A stretch of 64,000 nt of DNA from an uncultured Clostridia bacterium (GTDB lineage: Bacteria; Bacillota; Clostridia; TANB77; CAG-508): positions 6,620-70,619 of the forward strand of contig CALXCB010000001.1 of NCBI GenBank assembly GCA_944386695.1. Reading direction: 5' to 3'. The notes beneath the pieces are model-generated. The model searched no databases, was not told the DNA's origin, and was given only the letters and a program-made list of their open reading frames with translations. The first letter of the stretch is position 1. Every line of letters begins with the position of its first letter. The position numbers and the translations under genes are program-made. Of the stretch, positions 1,744-9,019 are shown piece by piece.

Positions 1744-3015
1744 TTATTTTAATAAAAGAATTGCTCTACTTCCTGTTCTTGGTAACTTTGCATCTATTTC
1801 TTGATAACTTCTATAGCTACATGATTTTTCAGAATCAGAATATGAGTTATAATATCCTCCTCTATAGCTAAAATAATAACTATACCCTCCTAGAGTTAAT
1901 TCATTTACATTTCCAGCCATATCATAAATATTATTTACCTTGGTATATTCCGAACTTCCAGCAGGTATTAATTTTGAATTGTTACTTCCTGGTTCTTTTA
2001 ATAATATATTGCCAGTCACGTCTGTATAATACTTAAATGATGAATCTCTATAGTTTCCCCACAAATTAGAGTTGCTTATATCTTCATATGTTTTAACTCC
2101 AGTATCAATAAACCATTGTATAGTATAATCCCATAAAGAACTCCATATCATTGAGGTTATTATGTTTTCATTTTCTTTTTTTAGCTTTTTAGTTTTTTGA
2201 TACATATCAGTCCAACTTTGTTCTGATAAATTTTCATTCAATCTTCTGATTGTTACCTCATTATCTACTAGCCCACTTTCATATCTACCTATATAAAAAC
2301 CTCCATATTTTTTTATACTTTTTATCATCTCGTAATAATTTTGTTCTAATTCTCTTAATAATTCTTCTCGATTTTTATTTAATCTTAATTGTAATGTCAT
2401 TTCACTAACAATATTGGTATTTGCTCCATATCCTAAACCTGGTTCAAAGTAATTAGTCGATACTTTTACATCAACTTTACCATTTATATCTTTCCACCCT
2501 AGTGGACTTCTTCCATCTTGAGTATATGAATATAATTTTCCCCATATCTTTCCATTGCTATCTACACCATATATACTATTAATCTGTTCTTCATTTACAG
2601 GAATCCATACATATTGATTATAACTAGATTGTAGCTGTAATAACTCCTTTTCTTTGCTACTTGTATTTGAATTTTCTTCTGCTAAATCTTCATTTTTAAT
2701 ACTATTCCAGTCTATATCTTTTTTGTTACATTCATAAATTACAAACCCTCCATTTACTGTTGTTTCTCCTTCTATCTTAGAAGCTGTGTACCCTTCAGGC
2801 ACAGGAACGAAATTTCCATCACTGCTTTCTACATATGAAATATTTGTTGTTTCTTGAATTAGTTTTGATGAATTTTTTGATTTTAAAATTATTTTTTCAC
2901 TTAAAATCGATTGAATAAATGATTTGATTAATATTGAAAAAATTAATATTGTAATTATAAAAATGACTAGAAATAAAAAATTTTTTAAAAATTTTATTGA
3001 CCTTCTCGCAATAAT
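1744..3015 (-). CDS. Membrane-anchored FGE-sulfatase/SUMF1-family domain protein with a probable non-canonical ATT start
   Basis: The C-terminal MAGNVNELTLGG...YRGGYYNSY...CSYRSY pattern is typical of formylglycine-generating-enzyme-like domains. The frame stays open upstream of the tracked GTG (2802) and encodes a signal anchor (FLFLVIFIITILIFSILI). An AAAGGAGGG SD precedes it, and there is no ATG, GTG or TTG in between. Confidence 0.55.
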   Translation of the reverse strand: MIARRSIKFLKNFLFLVIFIITILIFSILIKSFIQSILSEKIILKSKNSSKLIQETTNISYVESSDGNFVPVPEGYTASKIEGETTVNGGFVIYECNKKDIDWNSIKNEDLAEENSNTSSKEKELLQLQSSYNQYVWIPVNEEQINSIYGVDSNGKIWGKLYSYTQDGRSPLGWKDINGKVDVKVSTNYFEPGLGYGANTNIVSEMTLQLRLNKNREELLRELEQNYYEMIKSIKKYGGFYIGRYESGLVDNEVTIRRLNENLSEQSWTDMYQKTKKLKKENENIITSMIWSSLWDYTIQWFIDTGVKTYEDISNSNLWGNYRDSSFKYYTDVTGNILLKEPGSNNSKLIPAGSSEYTKVNNIYDMAGNVNELTLGGYSYYFSYRGGYYNSYSDSEKSCSYRSYQEIDAKLPRTGSRAILLLK

Positions 3016-3081
3016 CCCTCCTTTTAAATTTTGTTTTGAGATATTTTTTATATCTCTTGTGTTTTATGTTAACATAAAATT

Positions 3082-3944
3082 TTAATTTTGACAATATTTT
3101 TTTCCATTTTTTTCTATTTTTTCATCGCAAATTTCGACTTTTTTTTGTAAATTCGGGACCTTTTGGACCGGTTGTTTTTGGTTCCAAATTTCATTTATTG
3201 TTTTTCTTCCTATTGTAATTATTCTTGCTATTTGCCTTTGGCTTACACCTTGTATCTTTTTTAATTCTTTTATTTTTTCTATATTTCCATTCTCTTTGAA
3301 AAATTTACCTATTTTTTTACAGAGTCTATTTTGAATCTTTTCATTATAATATCTATAACTTCTTCATCTTTCAAATTATTAGATAGTTCAAAATCCGCAA
3401 AATTCATTATCTCTTCTATGCTATCAATTTTATTTGTATATTTAACAAAACTCTCTACCTCATTATTAAAATAATGTAGTAATATTTTTTTATCTATCAA
3501 TATTTCTCTTCCTACATATTCTTGATAGCTACTCCATTTATAAGTATTAGTTTTTTCTATTCCTGCTTTTTCTGGATTTCTATGGACATACCTACAGACT
3601 TCTAAAAAATATCTTTGATTTTCAATATTCTTACTTTTAAATCTATTTTGAACAAATGGACCTTTTCGATCATATTTTTTATTGAAATAACTTGCATATC
3701 GAATTGTCAAACTTTGCATTGCTTTTGATAAAAACTCATCTTCTATTTTAATTACCATATGCACATGATTGCCCATCAAACAATAAGCATACAGTTTATA
3801 ATGATATTCTTTTTTAGTTATTTTTAATCTATCTAAAAATATTTTTCTATCTTGATTATCATAAAAAATATTATTATCATCAATTCCTTTTAGAATTATA
3901 TGATAAATTTTTGAATTACTATATTTTCTTTTTATTCTTGACAA
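3082..3944 (-). CDS. RayT/IS200-like Y1 (HUH) tyrosine transposase, with the catalytic part (3309-3944) and a C-terminal HTH (3082-3318) in the -1 frame across an A7 run
   Basis: YHIILKG...LMGNHVHMVI...RFKS...YVHRNPEKAG are HUH/Y1 motifs. The downstream -1 frame encodes ...IGKFFKENGNIEKIKELKKIQGVSQRQIARIITIGRKTINEIW, which is HTH-like. The A7 run lies at 3312-3318. Confidence 0.75.
3155..3185. repeat. REP-A palindromic unit, a degenerate copy inverted relative to the 3971-4032 copies
   Basis: GGGACCTTTTGGACCGGTTGTTTTTGGTTCC is the reverse-complement match to GAACCAAAAAGAACCGGTCCAAATGGTTC. Confidence 0.7.
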
Positions 3945-3970
3945 TAAATTTCATCTCCTTTTTTCTTTTT

Positions 3971-4032
3971 GGAGCCAAAAAGAACCGGTCCAAATGGTTC
4001 GAAGAACCAAAAAGAACCGGTCCAAATGGTTC
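3971..4032. repeat. REP-A, two tandem direct units
   Basis: GGAGCCAAAAAGAACCGGTCCAAATGGTTC is followed by GAAGAACCAAAAAGAACCGGTCCAAATGGTTCC. Each unit has a GAACCA...TGGTTC stem. Confidence 0.8.
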
Positions 4033-4083
4033 CTTTTGCTATAATTCAAACTGTGTTGTGTATCTTCGAGGGAAGAAAATTTG

Positions 4084-5514
4084 TTATATAATATTATTTA
4101 TTTCATTTATCATATTATATACTCTTTCATCATTATATGTTCTATTTTCAAAAAGTATATCTAAAAAATTAGTATCACTCATAATAAATTCAATAAAATT
4201 CTTACAAATAGAATCATCAAATAATCCAAGCCAATTATAATATTCTATAGATGCTCCTCCTTCAAGGTATTTAGCTGCTTTTAACTCTTTTATTTTTAAT
4301 TTATATGAAGAAAACCTTACTAATATTTTAAATACTTCATATTTTTTTTCATTATTATAATTTACATTGCACTCCTTTTTATTATATTGCTCAAATTGAT
4401 TTTCTAGTTTTCTTCCTGTGTTTCTATCATAATTTATTAATAATATTTTATTATAAACTGTTTCCTTATTTTCTAATAATAAGTATTTATATTCATCATT
4501 ATGAAAAATGTGTATAATTATAAAATACAACACTAAAATAATATTATATATATTACTTAAGTCAATATTTTTTCTTATTAAATATTCTTTTATTGAAATA
4601 TATTTCCTTAACACTTTCTTTATATGTCTAGAATTGCTAAAAGCAATACTATCAAAAAAATCCACTATTTTTTTCGAATCCTCATGGCTAATATTCATAA
4701 TCTTAACAATACTATCTTCAAAATTTTCTACATTTATATTATTGCTTATACTAAAATTAATAGGAAATATTTTTTCTAAATATTCATCTGCTTTGTTGAA
4801 ATCATTATTATATTTATTTTGCAATGCTAAAGTAACAGCTTTTTTATCTATTCCAATTATAAATATAATATTTTTATTTACAGATAATAGCAATTTTATA
4901 GAAGATATTAGATTAATAATATTTTCTGATTCACATCTATCCAAATCATCTAAAAATACAACTAATTTTTTATTATTAAAAGTCATTTTACTATATTCTT
5001 TTTCGAATTCATCTATTTTTTCCCACAAGCATTTATTATCTTTTATATTTTTTACTCTTTCTTCATCTAATTTTTGTACCTCATCTATAGCCTCTCCTGG
5101 CTTTATATTTATTATTCCTAAATTAACATCTATTCCCTTTGCCATGCTTTTTAATATACTGTATCCTATTTCTAGTATATTTTTTCCACTTTCTTTTAAT
5201 TTACTGATTTTCTTATCCTTAGTCATAAATTTTAGCAATGAATATGGTAAATTATCATCTTTTTCATATTTCCAAGTGTCAAACCATACTGTTTCAAATT
5301 TATTTTCAGGCAAGTTACTTTGTATTGTTTTCATTAAGCAACTTTTACCAATTCCCCATGGACCATATATAGCAATTAAATTGTTTTTTTCTAATAATTG
5401 CTTACTATCCTCTAGATTTAAAAAATTACAAATTGCTATTGCTTTATCATAAGTTCCGAACATATCATTTTCCCTATTTAATACTTTTATTTCTTCAATT
5501 AAACTTTCCTCCAT
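4084..5514 (-). CDS. KAP-family P-loop NTPase
   Basis: It has the Walker A motif IYGPWGIGKSCL, the Walker B/KAP signature VVFLDDLDRC, and a hydrophobic insert YNIILVLYFIIIHIF. Confidence 0.8.
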   Translation of the reverse strand: MEESLIEEIKVLNRENDMFGTYDKAIAICNFLNLEDSKQLLEKNNLIAIYGPWGIGKSCLMKTIQSNLPENKFETVWFDTWKYEKDDNLPYSLLKFMTKDKKISKLKESGKNILEIGYSILKSMAKGIDVNLGIINIKPGEAIDEVQKLDEERVKNIKDNKCLWEKIDEFEKEYSKMTFNNKKLVVFLDDLDRCESENIINLISSIKLLLSVNKNIIFIIGIDKKAVTLALQNKYNNDFNKADEYLEKIFPINFSISNNINVENFEDSIVKIMNISHEDSKKIVDFFDSIAFSNSRHIKKVLRKYISIKEYLIRKNIDLSNIYNIILVLYFIIIHIFHNDEYKYLLLENKETVYNKILLINYDRNTGRKLENQFEQYNKKECNVNYNNEKKYEVFKILVRFSSYKLKIKELKAAKYLEGGASIEYYNWLGLFDDSICKNFIEFIMSDTNFLDILFENRTYNDERVYNMINEINNII

Positions 5515-5535
5515 TTACTTTCTCCTTGTCATATT

Positions 5536-6345
5536 TTATTTTAATAATTTTCTTTCATTATCTTTCATTAATATTTTCATTTGTGATATTGCTATTTGAT
5601 TTAATTTATACAACCTTTGAGATTGTTGCATTCCTTCATTTATAAATATTGAATTTGTATTTTCTAAGTTTGCTAAACATATTAATTCATTTATACTTGC
5701 ATAATCTCTTATATTTCCTTTTTTATTTGGATTCTTTTCTCTCCATTCTTTTGCTGTCATTCCAAATAATGCCATATTTAATACATCAGCTTCTTCGGCA
5801 TATACTAAATTTACTTGCTTATTCGTTAATTCTTTAGGTATTAAATTGTTTTTTATTGCATCTGTATGTATTATATAATTAATCTTACTTAATTCTCTTT
5901 TAGCACTCCAACCTATTTCTCTTTGTTCATTTGCTTTTAATCTTTCAAACTCTTGAATTAAATATATTTTAAACTCTACTGAAACCCATGAAGCAAATTC
6001 AAAAGCAATATCTCTATGTGCATATGTTCCACCACCTTTGCCAGATTTAGAAACTAATCCTATAGCATCTGTTGATTCTATCCATTTTTGTGGAGCTAAT
6101 GTAAAACTATTTAATCCAGCCTCTTTTTTAAAGGCCTCGAATTCGATGCCTTTAAAATTTGGGTTGTGTATTAATTCCCAAATTCCTAAAAACTCTATTG
6201 TATTTCTATTCCTTATCCAATTTTGTATCACACCTTTTGGATTTTCTCTATTTTTATATCTAGCAATATCTGTTAAAGATATATATTCCTCATTATCTAC
6301 TAGAGTTATATTTATAGCTTGCTTCTTTACTATTAACGTTTTCAT
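5536..6345 (-). CDS. KilA-N domain-containing protein
   Basis: ISLTDIARYKN...VIQNWIRNRNTIEFLGIWE...GTYAHRDIAFEFASWVSVEFKIYLI matches the KilA-N/Bro-N pattern. It is co-directional with the KAP gene, 21 nt upstream of it. Confidence 0.75.
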   Translation of the reverse strand: MKTLIVKKQAINITLVDNEEYISLTDIARYKNRENPKGVIQNWIRNRNTIEFLGIWELIHNPNFKGIEFEAFKKEAGLNSFTLAPQKWIESTDAIGLVSKSGKGGGTYAHRDIAFEFASWVSVEFKIYLIQEFERLKANEQREIGWSAKRELSKINYIIHTDAIKNNLIPKELTNKQVNLVYAEEADVLNMALFGMTAKEWREKNPNKKGNIRDYASINELICLANLENTNSIFINEGMQQSQRLYKLNQIAISQMKILMKDNERKLLK

Positions 6346-6470
6346 TGTACCACATCCTTTTTGCTGATTTTATCAAACATTTGTTTTAATGTCAAGTGAA
6401 TAAAAATTATTTTTTAGATTTTGCACAAAATTTTAACTATTTAAAGTTTCCATAAAAATAAAGTATATGT

Positions 6471-6665
6471 TTATATATCATATACTTTATTTTCTTTATC
6501 ATTTTTCACTATTTCTACCCCAAAATATTCAAGTGGCAAAGCCCACTTAACATTAAATTTTCTACCATTTATAATATTTTTCATTTGGTCTTTGTGTTTC
6601 GTGGAGATATTCTCAAAATGCTCTTTCTCATATGCTACAAAATATTCTACTTTTTCATCCGTCAA
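6471..6665 (-). CDS. Small hypothetical protein (64 aa), possibly translationally coupled to the ABC gene
   Basis: Its TTG start overlaps the TGA stop of the upstream ABC gene. No recognisable motifs. Confidence 0.2.
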   Translation of the reverse strand: MTDEKVEYFVAYEKEHFENISTKHKDQMKNIINGRKFNVKWALPLEYFGVEIVKNDKENKVYDI

Positions 6666-9019
6666 AGCTCGTCGAATTGACTGTTATATAAATCTGCATA
6701 AAATCCTTGTTTTGCCATTAATTGATCATGATTTCCTTGTTCTATAATGTTTCCATCATTTACTACTAAAATCAAGTCAGCATTTTTTATTGTAGATAAT
6801 CTGTGAGCAATAATGAATGATGTCTTGCCCTCTGTTAATTTGTCCATTGCTTTTTGTACAAGCTCCTCTGTTCTTGTATCTACATTTGATGTTGCTTCAT
6901 CTAGTATTAAGAATGGTGTATTTTTTGTCATTCCTCTTGCTATTGTAAGTAATTGTTTTTGTCCTGCTGATACAGCATCATTATCTGAAAGAAGTGTATC
7001 TAATCCATGTGGTAATGTTTTTACAAAGTGGTCTAATCCTACTGTTTTGCATATTTCTCTTACTTCTTCATCTGTGATATTTTCGTTATTGTAAACTATG
7101 TTTTCTCTGATTGTTCCATCAAATAACCATGTATCTTGCAAAACCATTGTAAATAAATCATGTATGTTTTCTCTTGTTAATTCCTTTGTTGATATTCCAT
7201 CTATTTTTATATCTCCTGAATTTATTTCATAGAATTTCATAAGTAAGTTTACTAGGGTTGTTTTTCCTGCTCCTGTTGGTCCTACTATTGCTATCTTTTG
7301 ACCTGGTTCTGTTTTTGCACTAAAGTTCTTTATTGTAGGTTTAGGATTGTTGTCATATTGGAAAACAACATTATCAAATTCGATATTTCCTTTTACTTTT
7401 TCTTTATCAAGTTTTTTAGTTAACGAACTTTCGTCACTCATTTCTGCTTCATCTAAAAATTCAAATACTCTTTCACTAGCTGCTCCTGTTGATTGAAGCG
7501 ATGTCATTGCTTGAGCTATTTGCGATAAAGGTGATGTAAATAATCTTACATATGTAATAAATGCAACTATTACACCAAATGAGATTATATCATTCATTGT
7601 AAGTAATGCCCCAACTATACATACTGCAACATATCCAAAGTTTCCTATAAAGTTCATTATTGGTTGCATAAGTCCTGATAAGAATTGACTTTTTCTATTA
7701 GCTTCATATACATTTCTATTTAAAACATCAAATTTTTCATCAGCTAGTCTTTTGCCATTATATACTTTTACAACATTTAATCCTGTATAAATTTCTTCTA
7801 TATGACCATTCAATTTTCCTAATTCGACTTGTCTTGCTACGAAATATTTTTGTGATTTTCCTAAAATCAAAAACATAAATACAAATCCTATCAAACTCGC
7901 AAATATTGCTGTAAGTGCCATTATCCAGTTTGTATAGAACATCATTATTATTGTTCCTAAAAATAATGTTGTACTACTTACTAATGTTGCTAATGATTGG
8001 TTCATGCTTTGTGCTATTGTATCCACATCATTTGTTACTCTTGATAAAATGTCTCCTTTTGCGTTTTTGTCAAAATATCTTAATGGTAATTTATTTATTT
8101 TTATAGATATTCTGCTTCTTAAACTTTTTGCAAATTTGTTTGCAACATCTGTCATTAAAATTGATTGTATGAATGTAAATATCGCACTGGCTGTATATAA
8201 TGATGCTAATATTAATGCTATTTTCTTTATTGCATCCATATCCATAAATGGTTCAATTACATCTTGTATGCTTTTTGGCATTTCATCTATTTTTGAATAT
8301 AGCTCTGTTTCATCAGTTTCATCAGTCATAGAACTCATTAATTCTATAAATTTAATTTGATCTTCTGATGATATTTTTGTTCCATCAATTTCGATTTCAT
8401 CTAATAATGCTTTTTTGATATTTTCAGGTATTGATGATATTGCATCTTCTTTCACTTCTCCTGTCTCTAAACTTCCTATTGCTTTTAAGAATTCTATCTT
8501 ATCTTCAGTTGATATTTCTATATCATGATATGAAGTTTCTGGAAGAATTACTTGTAAAATACTATCTGGAAGCTCGCTTATATAACTCATACCATTATTT
8601 GATGCTTCTGACTCTTGCATCTTAGCCATTACTGTTTGAAATTCTTGTTTGTCTTCTTCTGATATCTCACTAGACATCATAATTTGTGTTATTGTGTCTT
8701 CTGATAAATTCATTGATAATATTTCTTCAATTTTTGACTGCATATTTTCTTCATTAAGACTTGATGTTATTGTATCTGTTATTGTTTTTAAATTATCTGT
8801 ATTTATAACTAATCCTTCTGATATTTCATCTGTTAAAGTTGATAATTTATTTGGAGCAATTATAGACATTATTGAGCCTAGCACTGCTAGAATAAGTGCT
8901 ATATATACTAATATTCTAAAAGGTTTCAATTCAGAAAAAAGCCTTTTCATTGCTCCTTTAAAGTCTTTTGCTTTATCTGTTGGGTTTCCTCCTCTTCCCA
9001 TTGGTCCTCCTCTAGGCAT
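6662..9019 (-). CDS. ABC exporter fused permease/ATPase (heterodimer subunit) with a large acidic insert between TM1 and TM2
   Basis: It has GPTGAGKTT, the signature SAGQKQLL and LILDEATS. Its 785 aa compare with about 590 aa for the partner subunit. Confidence 0.9.
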   Translation of the reverse strand: MPRGGPMGRGGNPTDKAKDFKGAMKRLFSELKPFRILVYIALILAVLGSIMSIIAPNKLSTLTDEISEGLVINTDNLKTITDTITSSLNEENMQSKIEEILSMNLSEDTITQIMMSSEISEEDKQEFQTVMAKMQESEASNNGMSYISELPDSILQVILPETSYHDIEISTEDKIEFLKAIGSLETGEVKEDAISSIPENIKKALLDEIEIDGTKISSEDQIKFIELMSSMTDETDETELYSKIDEMPKSIQDVIEPFMDMDAIKKIALILASLYTASAIFTFIQSILMTDVANKFAKSLRSRISIKINKLPLRYFDKNAKGDILSRVTNDVDTIAQSMNQSLATLVSSTTLFLGTIIMMFYTNWIMALTAIFASLIGFVFMFLILGKSQKYFVARQVELGKLNGHIEEIYTGLNVVKVYNGKRLADEKFDVLNRNVYEANRKSQFLSGLMQPIMNFIGNFGYVAVCIVGALLTMNDIISFGVIVAFITYVRLFTSPLSQIAQAMTSLQSTGAASERVFEFLDEAEMSDESSLTKKLDKEKVKGNIEFDNVVFQYDNNPKPTIKNFSAKTEPGQKIAIVGPTGAGKTTLVNLLMKFYEINSGDIKIDGISTKELTRENIHDLFTMVLQDTWLFDGTIRENIVYNNENITDEEVREICKTVGLDHFVKTLPHGLDTLLSDNDAVSAGQKQLLTIARGMTKNTPFLILDEATSNVDTRTEELVQKAMDKLTEGKTSFIIAHRLSTIKNADLILVVNDGNIIEQGNHDQLMAKQGFYADLYNSQFDEL

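Follow-up and report, generated by a model that had tools for sequence, protein, structure and literature searches.

The Y1 transposase locus

The window analysed here, a stretch of 64 kb (27.6% GC) of contig CALXCB010000001.1 from an uncultured Clostridia bacterium, harbors a gene for a Y1 transposase of the HUH type that is bracketed by copies of a short repeat, denoted REP-A. The gene is encoded on the minus strand, thus two tandem repeat units are located on its 5′ side and one degenerate unit on its 3′ side, the two sides being oppositely oriented (Table 1). Gene and repeat probably constitute a system comparable to the REPtrons, in which a tyrosine transposase (RAYT) is associated with repetitive extragenic palindromes (REPs), or to the TIRtrons with their terminal inverted repeats (TIRs), i.e. 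a single-copy, vertically inherited Y1 HUH protein of subclass 2.1 together with its cognate non-autonomous repeats.

Table 1. Positions of the gene parts, repeat units and repeat-bearing elements in the window.
Feature	Position	Strand	Remarks
Y1 (HUH) transposase, first open reading frame (ORF)	3309..3944	-	211 aa, TTG start; Pfam Y1_Tnp
Frameshift site	3311..3322	-	minus strand GTAAAAAAATAG versus GTGAAAAAAATAGG in the intact, 91%-identical relative L004
Second reading frame of the Y1 gene	3082..3318	-	C-terminal helix-turn-helix (HTH; ..KIKELKKIQGVSQRQIARIITIGRKTINEIW) and 33-aa tail
Degenerate 3′ unit	3156-3184	-	3 mismatches, 26/29 positions; sense relative to the Y1 gene
Tandem 5′ unit	3972-4000	+	1 mismatch; antisense to the Y1 gene; period 32
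Tandem 5′ unit	4004-4032	+	0 mismatches; antisense to the Y1 gene; period 32
whiA, split	21253..22108	-	N-part 21791-22108 (105 aa), C-part 21253-21798 (181 aa), different frames
Inverted doublet	21792..21851		hairpin of 26 bp with one internal mismatch; REPIN-like, in the interdomain linker of whiA
Unit of the doublet	21792-21820	-	2 mismatches
Unit of the doublet	21823-21851	+	1 mismatch
Foldback element (MITE-like)	43798..44262		465 bp; 79-nt arms, 99% complementary; outermost 29 nt are variant units
Left foldback tip	43799-43827	-	variant unit GTACCAAAAAGACCCGGTCCCAATTGTTC
Right foldback tip	44233-44261	+	variant unit GTACCAAAAAGACCCGGTCCCAATTGTTC

The first ORF contains the HUH motif (NHVH), the tyrosine motif (RYVHRNP) and a WSSY serine motif as well as a linker, and its product matches Pfam Y1_Tnp with an E-value of 5e-11. 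It is terminated by a TAG directly after GTAAAAAAA, a stop which arises from a frameshift: as judged from the intact sequence of contig L004, one base is missing at 3311-3320 of the window. This loss creates an A_AAA_AAA heptamer abutting the 0-frame stop. One additional A, or a -1 slip, at the same site recovers the protein sequence of the relative (..SVKKIGKFF..), and in silico addition of one A leads to a continuous Y1-HTH protein of 287 residues. The C-terminal HTH segment gives a weak Pfam match to HTH_19 (E = 6e-4). The 3′ repeat unit begins directly past the HTH-coding segment, the usual stop after ..W is absent and the tail is translated through the unit up to a stop at 3082-3084, which matches the start coordinate given in the initial annotation. 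The nearest homolog, P0001 on L004, is intact (297 residues, 91% identical), and homologs of 255-262 residues terminate immediately past the HTH. The initial annotation had placed one Y1 gene in 3082-4032, between two tandem units on the 5′ side and a degenerate unit in the opposite orientation on the 3′ side. All these elements are present at the positions given, and the opposite orientation of the 5′ and 3′ units is confirmed; the gene, however, is not one ORF, since its HTH part is found in another frame.

Contigs of four independent metagenome runs (X1, X4, X6 and X8) cross the frameshift site free of indels, which shows that the frameshift exists in the population and did not arise during assembly. 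In X4 and X8 a 1-nt deletion is observed in the T-run at 3139 within the repeat-encoded tail, which shows that this tail is free of coding constraint. Were the frameshift programmed, through a -1 slip of the ribosome on A_AAA_AAA or slippage of the RNA polymerase on A7, both a short catalytic and a full-length Y1-HTH protein would be made, and the system would be fully active and regulated. This explanation would be in line with the heptamer right before the 0-frame stop, with the exact recovery of the relative's sequence by a -1 slip, with a downstream frame that stays open for 76 codons in a genome of such low GC content and with fixation in four independent samples. However, the closest relative and more than 100 homologs have one continuous ORF, so that a programmed frameshift is not a family trait, the AT-rich flank offers no obvious stimulator, be it Shine-Dalgarno-like or structured, the A7 run is short to support efficient slippage in transcription, and the locus bears other signs of decay (degenerate 3′ unit, lost stop, few copies), all of which renders this explanation improbable.

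There is practically no chance that the arrangement as a whole is fortuitous or an assembly artefact in which the repeats are chimeric joins or mis-assemblies of a metagenome-assembled contig. The organism is indeed uncultured and known through metagenomes, and Logan contigs often break at repeats, but the RAYT locus is reproduced by independent runs and studies with 0-2 base differences (2900-4032 in X1, 2900-4035 in X6), the sole gap being the 1 nt at 3139 in X4 and X8. Furthermore, the junctions of the whiA doublet are spanned by independent contigs, and the same architecture is found in independently assembled contigs of related species.

The AlphaFold (AF2) model of P0001 reaches a predicted local distance difference test score (pLDDT) of 79, with values above 90 for the core and below 50 for the repeat-encoded tail; the C-terminal helices are modelled with confidence. 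The top fold match in the PDB is 4ER8, the E. coli RAYT in complex with a REP hairpin (E = 4.3e-7, TM-score 0.73, rmsd 3.1 Å), with the IS608, ISDra2 and IS200 transposases ranking below it at E-values of 1.4e-4 or worse. In NCBIfam the top family of the Y1 protein is NF047646 REP_Tyr_transpos (61.9 bits), whereas the same search gives zero IS200 matches. The motifs NHVH, YVHRNP and WSSY are unchanged across 49 homologs. Sequencing depth over the gene is 22.8 in run X1 and equals that of the flanks there as well as in X6 and X8, so the gene is single-copy; a second copy is absent within the window, and neither a tnpB neighbour nor insertion sequence (IS) ends are found at the locus.

These properties make it very unlikely that the gene belongs to an ordinary IS200/IS605 element whose left and right subterminal hairpins would be the flanking repeats. 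The protein does carry the Y1_Tnp Pfam domain, the TnpA structures of IS608 and ISDra2 are significant fold matches, and elements of the IS200 family are common in Clostridia (Quentin et al. 2018, PMC6006769). Yet it lacks an IS200 match in NCBIfam, contains Y---NP instead of Y---Q and comprises about 255 residues with an HTH as compared to about 150 for TnpA, and its gene is single-copy by depth, keeps the same neighbours in relatives and has no tnpB. Moreover, the flanks are arrays of a unit that is also found solo far from any transposase, and they are inverted copies of one sequence rather than distinct left and right ends. The initial annotation, which had set the gene apart from ordinary IS200/IS605 TnpA with canonical IS ends, is borne out in this respect.

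The REP-A repeat family

A search of the window with the 29-mer GAACCAAAAAGAACCGGTCCAAATGGTTC, allowing up to 3 mismatches, leads to 5 places, while 0 are expected from 100 shuffles. A profile built from 107 family members (see below) detects exactly 7 units at four loci in the 64 kb and none besides, namely on both sides of the Y1 gene, in whiA and at the tips of the foldback element. Of the two tips, assigned 25 of 29 matching positions by the initial annotation, the right one agrees with GAACCAAAAAGAACCGGTCCAAATGGTTC at 25/29 and the left one at 24/29. None of the units contains GTAG or GTGG. The spacing between the tandem array and the Y1 start codon is about 27-28 nt. At the 3′ position of the gene L004 has two good units as compared to the one degenerate unit of the window. 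The Rfam and tRNA scans of the window found nothing, and the repeat is therefore no known RNA family; a CRISPR-like array was rejected as well, because the period of 32 leaves no spacers.

Beyond the window, metagenome contigs were scanned for the conserved core CCAAAAAGANCCGGTCCNAAT, which occurs in at least 120 stretches, nearly all of 25-33% GC and many from gut, including several large contigs with multiple matches. Alignment of 107 distinct units reveals an invariant 19-nt centre between arms that are lineage-variable yet complementary (TGTCCC/GGGACA, GTACC/GGTAC, GACCC/GGGTC and GCCCC/GGGGC; in the window GAACC/GGTTC). In the unit of about 31 nt, a stem of 6-7 bp is closed by a conserved loop of 17 nt, AAAAGA(A/C)CCGGTCC(C/A)AA, within which CCGGTCC is invariant. 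The 7-bp stem is 83% paired versus 73% in shuffles, with 0/500 shuffles reaching 83%, doubly changed cells in the stem number 65 versus 28, and the covariation score is 0.219 versus 0.08, or at most 0.151 with the partner slid. Since pairing and covariation exceed those of the shuffles, the unit is, on comparative grounds, a structured stem-loop in which the loop is the conserved part and which lacks a GT[AG]G tag. Solo units retain the stem.

Overall the units are placed next to the gene, solo, in tandem with a period of 31-32, as inverted doublets and at the tips of miniature inverted-repeat transposable elements (MITEs). They show an extragenic bias, 33% being situated within ORFs of at least 120 residues versus 81% of the background. 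Many family members, in L007, L021, L035, L066, L107 and others, form the inner part of an extended hairpin, GGGACGGTTCTTTTTGCAAAATGTCCC - loop - GGGACATTTTTCGCAAAAGGAACCGTCCCC, the outer arms of which resemble the reverse complement of the core minus one base; alternative pairings between outer arm and core are possible.

To estimate how many copies this organism carries, contigs from two chicken-gut metagenomes were aligned to the tandem pair. A near-identical REP-A unit is present on 17 contigs in each of the two runs, and the summed unit depth of about 395 versus about 20 for unique flanks corresponds to roughly 18 times the single-copy depth; the depth ratio of the whiA doublet is similar. 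This gives a rough figure of about 17-20 near-identical units in this genome, an estimate which misses diverged units and to which other species in the sample could contribute. REP-A is thus not confined to the loci of the window, as the initial annotation had anticipated with its dispersed copies. Dispersal at the classical REP level means more than 100 units per genome, to be compared here with 7 units in 64 kb and the approximate 17-20 derived from metagenome contigs.

In whiA, two units are arranged as an inverted doublet that folds strongly (-27.9 kcal/mol, z -10.3). The initial annotation had located this doublet inside the gene, and an inverted doublet is indeed found there; it does not merely lie within whiA, though, but splits it into two ORFs. 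The N-part ends and the C-part begins within the repeat unit, where the stop of the former overlaps the ATG of the latter as ATGGTTAG; translational coupling of the two ORFs appears plausible. The C-part retains complete LAGLIDADG_WhiA and HTH_WhiA domains. Intact WhiA homologs comprise 277-302 residues, with a linker between N-terminal domain and LAGLIDADG domain that is hypervariable in length and sequence. Contigs of X1, X6, X7 and X13 reproduce the doublet sequence, and the split arrangement is fixed in several independent metagenome samples. An intein or intron was rejected for this site, the insert consisting of two repeat units and nothing more.

The inner segments of the foldback element are covered in X1 with a depth of 300-555 as compared to 19-27 for the flanks, and in X1, X4 and X6 they are found at 10- to 20-fold single-copy depth. 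Due to this over-representation the element can be assigned to a multi-copy MITE-like family. Its tips are closest to the units beside the RAYT homolog of L054 (96.8% over 31 nt), which may indicate that this genome has a second repeat subfamily, perhaps along with a second or former enzyme. The element holds further nested inverted repeats (I2-I4) and is neighboured by a gene for a CDP-alcohol phosphatidyltransferase on one side and by a gene with a BofC C-terminal domain on the other.

Gene and repeat in related lineages

Three loci selected by the motif hold a Y1 homolog with units at the gene ends. By an independent route, further loci were retrieved with the Y1 protein alone and not with the repeat, and these display the same arrangement. 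The layout is shared by L054, L115, L057, L125, L129/130 and L131/132. In all 7 lineages for which both flanks can be seen, units on the 5′ side run antisense to the gene and those on the 3′ side in its sense, the latter beginning at the stop codon or overlapping it. The units are alike inside a lineage and differ among lineages around the invariant CCGGTCC. Because of this uniform flank orientation and the lineage-specific likeness of the units, gene and repeat display the REPtron pattern with co-evolution. The REPtron-like layout proposed initially therefore recurs in seven independent related lineages, and REP/RAYT-type systems accordingly reach a protein subclass and a phylum in which published surveys had recorded none, the relationship being extended to the Firmicutes.

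In L129-L132 (P0039 and P0045, about 61% identical) the Y1 gene is located upstream of RecD2 in all four contigs, and in L129 and L130 POR genes follow directly on its other side, resulting in the order POR - RAYT - RecD2. Two or three antisense units are positioned upstream of the gene and two to four sense units downstream, starting from the stop codon. The spacer from array to start spans about 80-110 nt and comprises a promoter-like TAGACA-N17-TG-n-TAAAAT. Additional doublets occur elsewhere in L131 and L132. The gene downstream of the Y1 locus of the window is also present in L004. On the upstream side (4084-6345) the Y1 gene is adjoined by genes for a KAP-family P-loop NTPase, which has a weak QatA-like match (72 bits versus a cutoff of 600), and for a KilA-N domain protein; these genes may represent a defence or mobile islet.

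In L125 (P0089, 58% identical) unit arrays are found upstream of the gene on the opposite strand and downstream on the strand of the gene. Arrays occupy 10 intergenic spacers within 20 kb, one directly upstream of the gene and nine further ones (4296-18646), the latter being tandem doublets with period 32 that lie on the + strand shortly past a + strand gene. The L125 units are strongly strand-biased, unlike the family overall. This pattern suggests either a role at transcript 3′ ends or a strong strand preference in that lineage.

An alternative explanation assigns the repeats to the host, with no part in the catalysis by the enzyme, for instance as transcription terminators, as stabilisers of mRNA 3′ ends or as operators of the HTH domain; the Y1 protein would then be a domesticated DNA-binding regulator, and its adjacency to the repeats would reflect autoregulation and not mobilisation. 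The nine sense-oriented L125 arrays would agree with it, as would the A-run before and the T-run after the stem, which in many family members resemble those of bidirectional terminators, and the terminator-like score of unit 4014-4032. In addition, the ACCGGT dyad of the core would suit a dimeric HTH, and evidence of movement in the form of empty sites is missing. Pure regulators, however, rarely retain catalytic residues such as the HUH and Tyr residues that are invariant in 49 homologs. Units inside whiA and as MITE tips imply insertion events, some L131 arrays are antisense to both adjacent genes, and the homogenisation of hundreds of scattered units per lineage needs a copying mechanism. 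Repeats of purely host function are hence judged unlikely, although less so than the programmed frameshift discussed above.

On the + strand, 15/16 4-kb bins have a negative GC skew, the exception being 40001-44000 with +0.04. Together with the location of most genes on the - strand, this places the window on one replichore with the - strand leading. Pfam identifies a Hydrolase_2 cell-wall hydrolase (SleB/CwlJ-type, 22679-23083) and a BofC_C domain (44260-44697) in the window, and genes for SpoVG, SipL and YunB are found in a relative; because of these genes the host is presumably a spore-forming Clostridium.

Proposed mechanism and comparison with known systems

If gene and repeats do form a REPtron- or TIRtron-type system, the enzyme would, by analogy to E. 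coli TnpA_REP and IS608 TnpA, bind the unit in its folded, single-stranded form, the replication fork being the probable site. Its HUH/Tyr site would cleave and rejoin the unit, thereby copying or moving units, while the C-terminal HTH, to judge from its domain content, would direct the enzyme to double-stranded DNA or to particular loci, with the ACCGGT dyad as a possible site. The homogenisation of the units within each lineage points to continuing activity, and in the present genome past unit insertions would have split whiA and capped a MITE.

Several observations weigh against such a system. Direct evidence of mobility is absent: no contigs with an empty site for the whiA doublet or the foldback element were found in eight metagenome runs searched at 80-90% likeness (the joints seen at 80% are whiA genes of other species and uninformative), and the single polymorphism of the units, a contig of X4 with one tandem unit in place of two (32 nt skipped, 3974 to 4007), could be a product of replication slippage. 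As to the unit, it carries a conserved loop instead of the GTAG-tagged hairpin foot, unlike every biochemically studied REP/RAYT pair. For a single 29-nt unit the predicted folding (-3.1 kcal/mol, z -1.4) is not stronger than for shuffled sequence, so that the palindrome described in the initial annotation holds for the inverted doublet, whereas the single unit is a weak one. Relative to GC skew the units show no leading/lagging strand bias overall (150 versus 146). As to the protein, its 61.9 bits do not reach the curated REP_Tyr_transpos cutoff of 80 in NCBIfam, and sequence searches of the PDB with the protein or with a 49-sequence profile retrieved no Y1 structure and did not reach 4ER8. 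For subclass 2.1, automatic and manual searches gave no REP-like sequences (Quentin et al. 2018, PMC6006769). Finally, among 185,579 species-representative genomes the exact 19-mer has only three matches, all in unrelated high-GC genomes, and this organism and its close relatives are therefore apparently not represented in that set.

Within this genome the system appears weakened, being modest in size, and it may be in decay. Owing to the frameshift, HTH and catalytic domain are separated; the 3′ unit has degenerated, the gene has lost its stop and the copies are few; furthermore, the spacer from array to start is short and the gene's own promoter spacer is apparently gone. The A_AAA_AAA heptamer leaves room for a low-level -1 rescue.

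A wider version of the same reading can be put forward tentatively, with somewhat more to be said against than for it. The family would then be an unrecognised REP-RAYT class that is widespread in low-GC gut Clostridia, its HTH-bearing subclass 2.1 enzyme would read a conserved single-stranded loop or a dyad (CCGGTCC/ACCGGT) within a variable stem instead of the GTAG-tagged foot of a hairpin, and its repeats would fill most intergenic spacers in some species, cap MITEs and split conserved genes, whiA for example, into two translationally coupled ORFs.

No case illustrates better than the REP/RAYT pairs how a domesticated transposase can keep up a population of short repeats in bacterial genomes, and nearly all that is known about them was learned in Proteobacteria and with GTAG-tagged hairpins. 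Subclass 2.1, second in size among the Y1 subclasses, harbors an extra DNA-binding domain and has been reported without cognate repeats, which has left its function open. Its Clostridial branch shows a clear co-evolving repeat partner of different architecture. The repeat family offers a defined substrate for biochemistry on the strand that is bound or cleaved and on the role of the HTH, and it accounts for a prominent GC-rich repeat at which metagenome assemblies of gut Clostridia break up and by which genes like whiA are interrupted.

By its motifs and architecture, compared with the motif table of PMC6006769, the Y1 protein fits TnpA_Y1 subclass 2.1 (Bertels Group 1, TIRYT-like) and not the classical E. 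coli-type RAYTs. The signature of this subclass consists of NHVH or NH[YF]H, Y[IV]HLNP or YIELNP, a proximal SS, a median length of about 238 residues and a C-terminal HTH similar to Bac_DnaA_C, HTH_23 or HTH_28 (PMC6006769), and the features present here are NHVH, ..VQNRF.., YVHRNP, WSSY, homologs of 255-262 residues and a C-terminal HTH. The RAYT-type label of the initial annotation stands with regard to the class-2 Y motif and the best fold match, 4ER8, but has to be modified to an HTH-bearing subclass 2.1 protein without a GTAG-tagged REP. Bertels Group 1 is the counterpart of subclass 2.1, and the TIRYTs of Di Nocera et al. 2013 probably are as well. Bertels Group 1 occurs in Clostridia, where its flanking 16-mers are weakly repeated (Bertels et al. 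2017, PMC5581495), the TIRtrons were described without Firmicute examples (Di Nocera et al. 2013, PMC3733652), and Firmicutes are unmentioned in Nunvar 2010 and Corneloup 2021. REP-RAYT pairs in the literature are mainly from Proteobacteria, Cyanobacteria and Bacteroidetes, and the limited set of literature searched describes no Clostridial REP/RAYT or TIRtron. An example from a low-GC spore-former, as the initial annotation put it, would thus be less familiar, with spore formation itself deduced from gene content.

With IS200/IS605 elements (IS608, ISDra2) the present system shares the catalytic fold and presumably the hairpin-guided chemistry on single strands. In contrast to them, its gene is single-copy and syntenic, without tnpB and with other Y and W motifs, and its flanks are copies of a dispersed repeat. 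The whiA doublet, with two inverted units forming a long hairpin, corresponds to a REPIN, a hairpin-forming REP doublet (Bertels & Rainey 2011), but in this clade tandem direct doublets with a period of 31-32 equal or outnumber the inverted ones, and the population size in this genome looks small.

The E. coli REPtron (TnpA_REP/RAYT, subclass 2.2, 4ER8; Nunvar 2010, Ton-Hoang 2012, Messing 2012) likewise consists of a single-copy Y1 HUH gene between inverted copies of its own repeats. E. coli REPs and bacterial interspersed mosaic elements (BIMEs) are similarly dispersed, mostly extragenic and arranged as monomers, tandem clusters and inverted pairs, and the E. coli RAYT, the best structural match, has the Y---NP motif in common with the protein of the window. 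Significant differences are observed in the size of the protein, with 165 residues in E. coli as compared to about 255 including a C-terminal HTH in proteins of the window type, and in the GTAG-recognition region, where W94 of the E. coli RAYT is replaced (..FVQNRF..). The 5′ GT[AG]G tag of canonical REPs is absent from the REP-A unit, whose short stem and long, conserved loop are the reverse of a REP, and the host is a Clostridium instead of a proteobacterium.

TIRtrons and their TIRYTs also comprise a gene flanked by inverted non-GTAG repeats, and some TIR families are moderately repeated and occur as dimers or clusters. The TIRYT consensus GGGGWSAS has 0 matches in the window; the outer arms GGGGACGG of some relatives are similar to it, yet fall outside the consensus. 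Whereas subclass 2.1 has been reported without REPs, the flanks of the gene described here belong to a family of covarying stem-loops that is abundant in some lineages.

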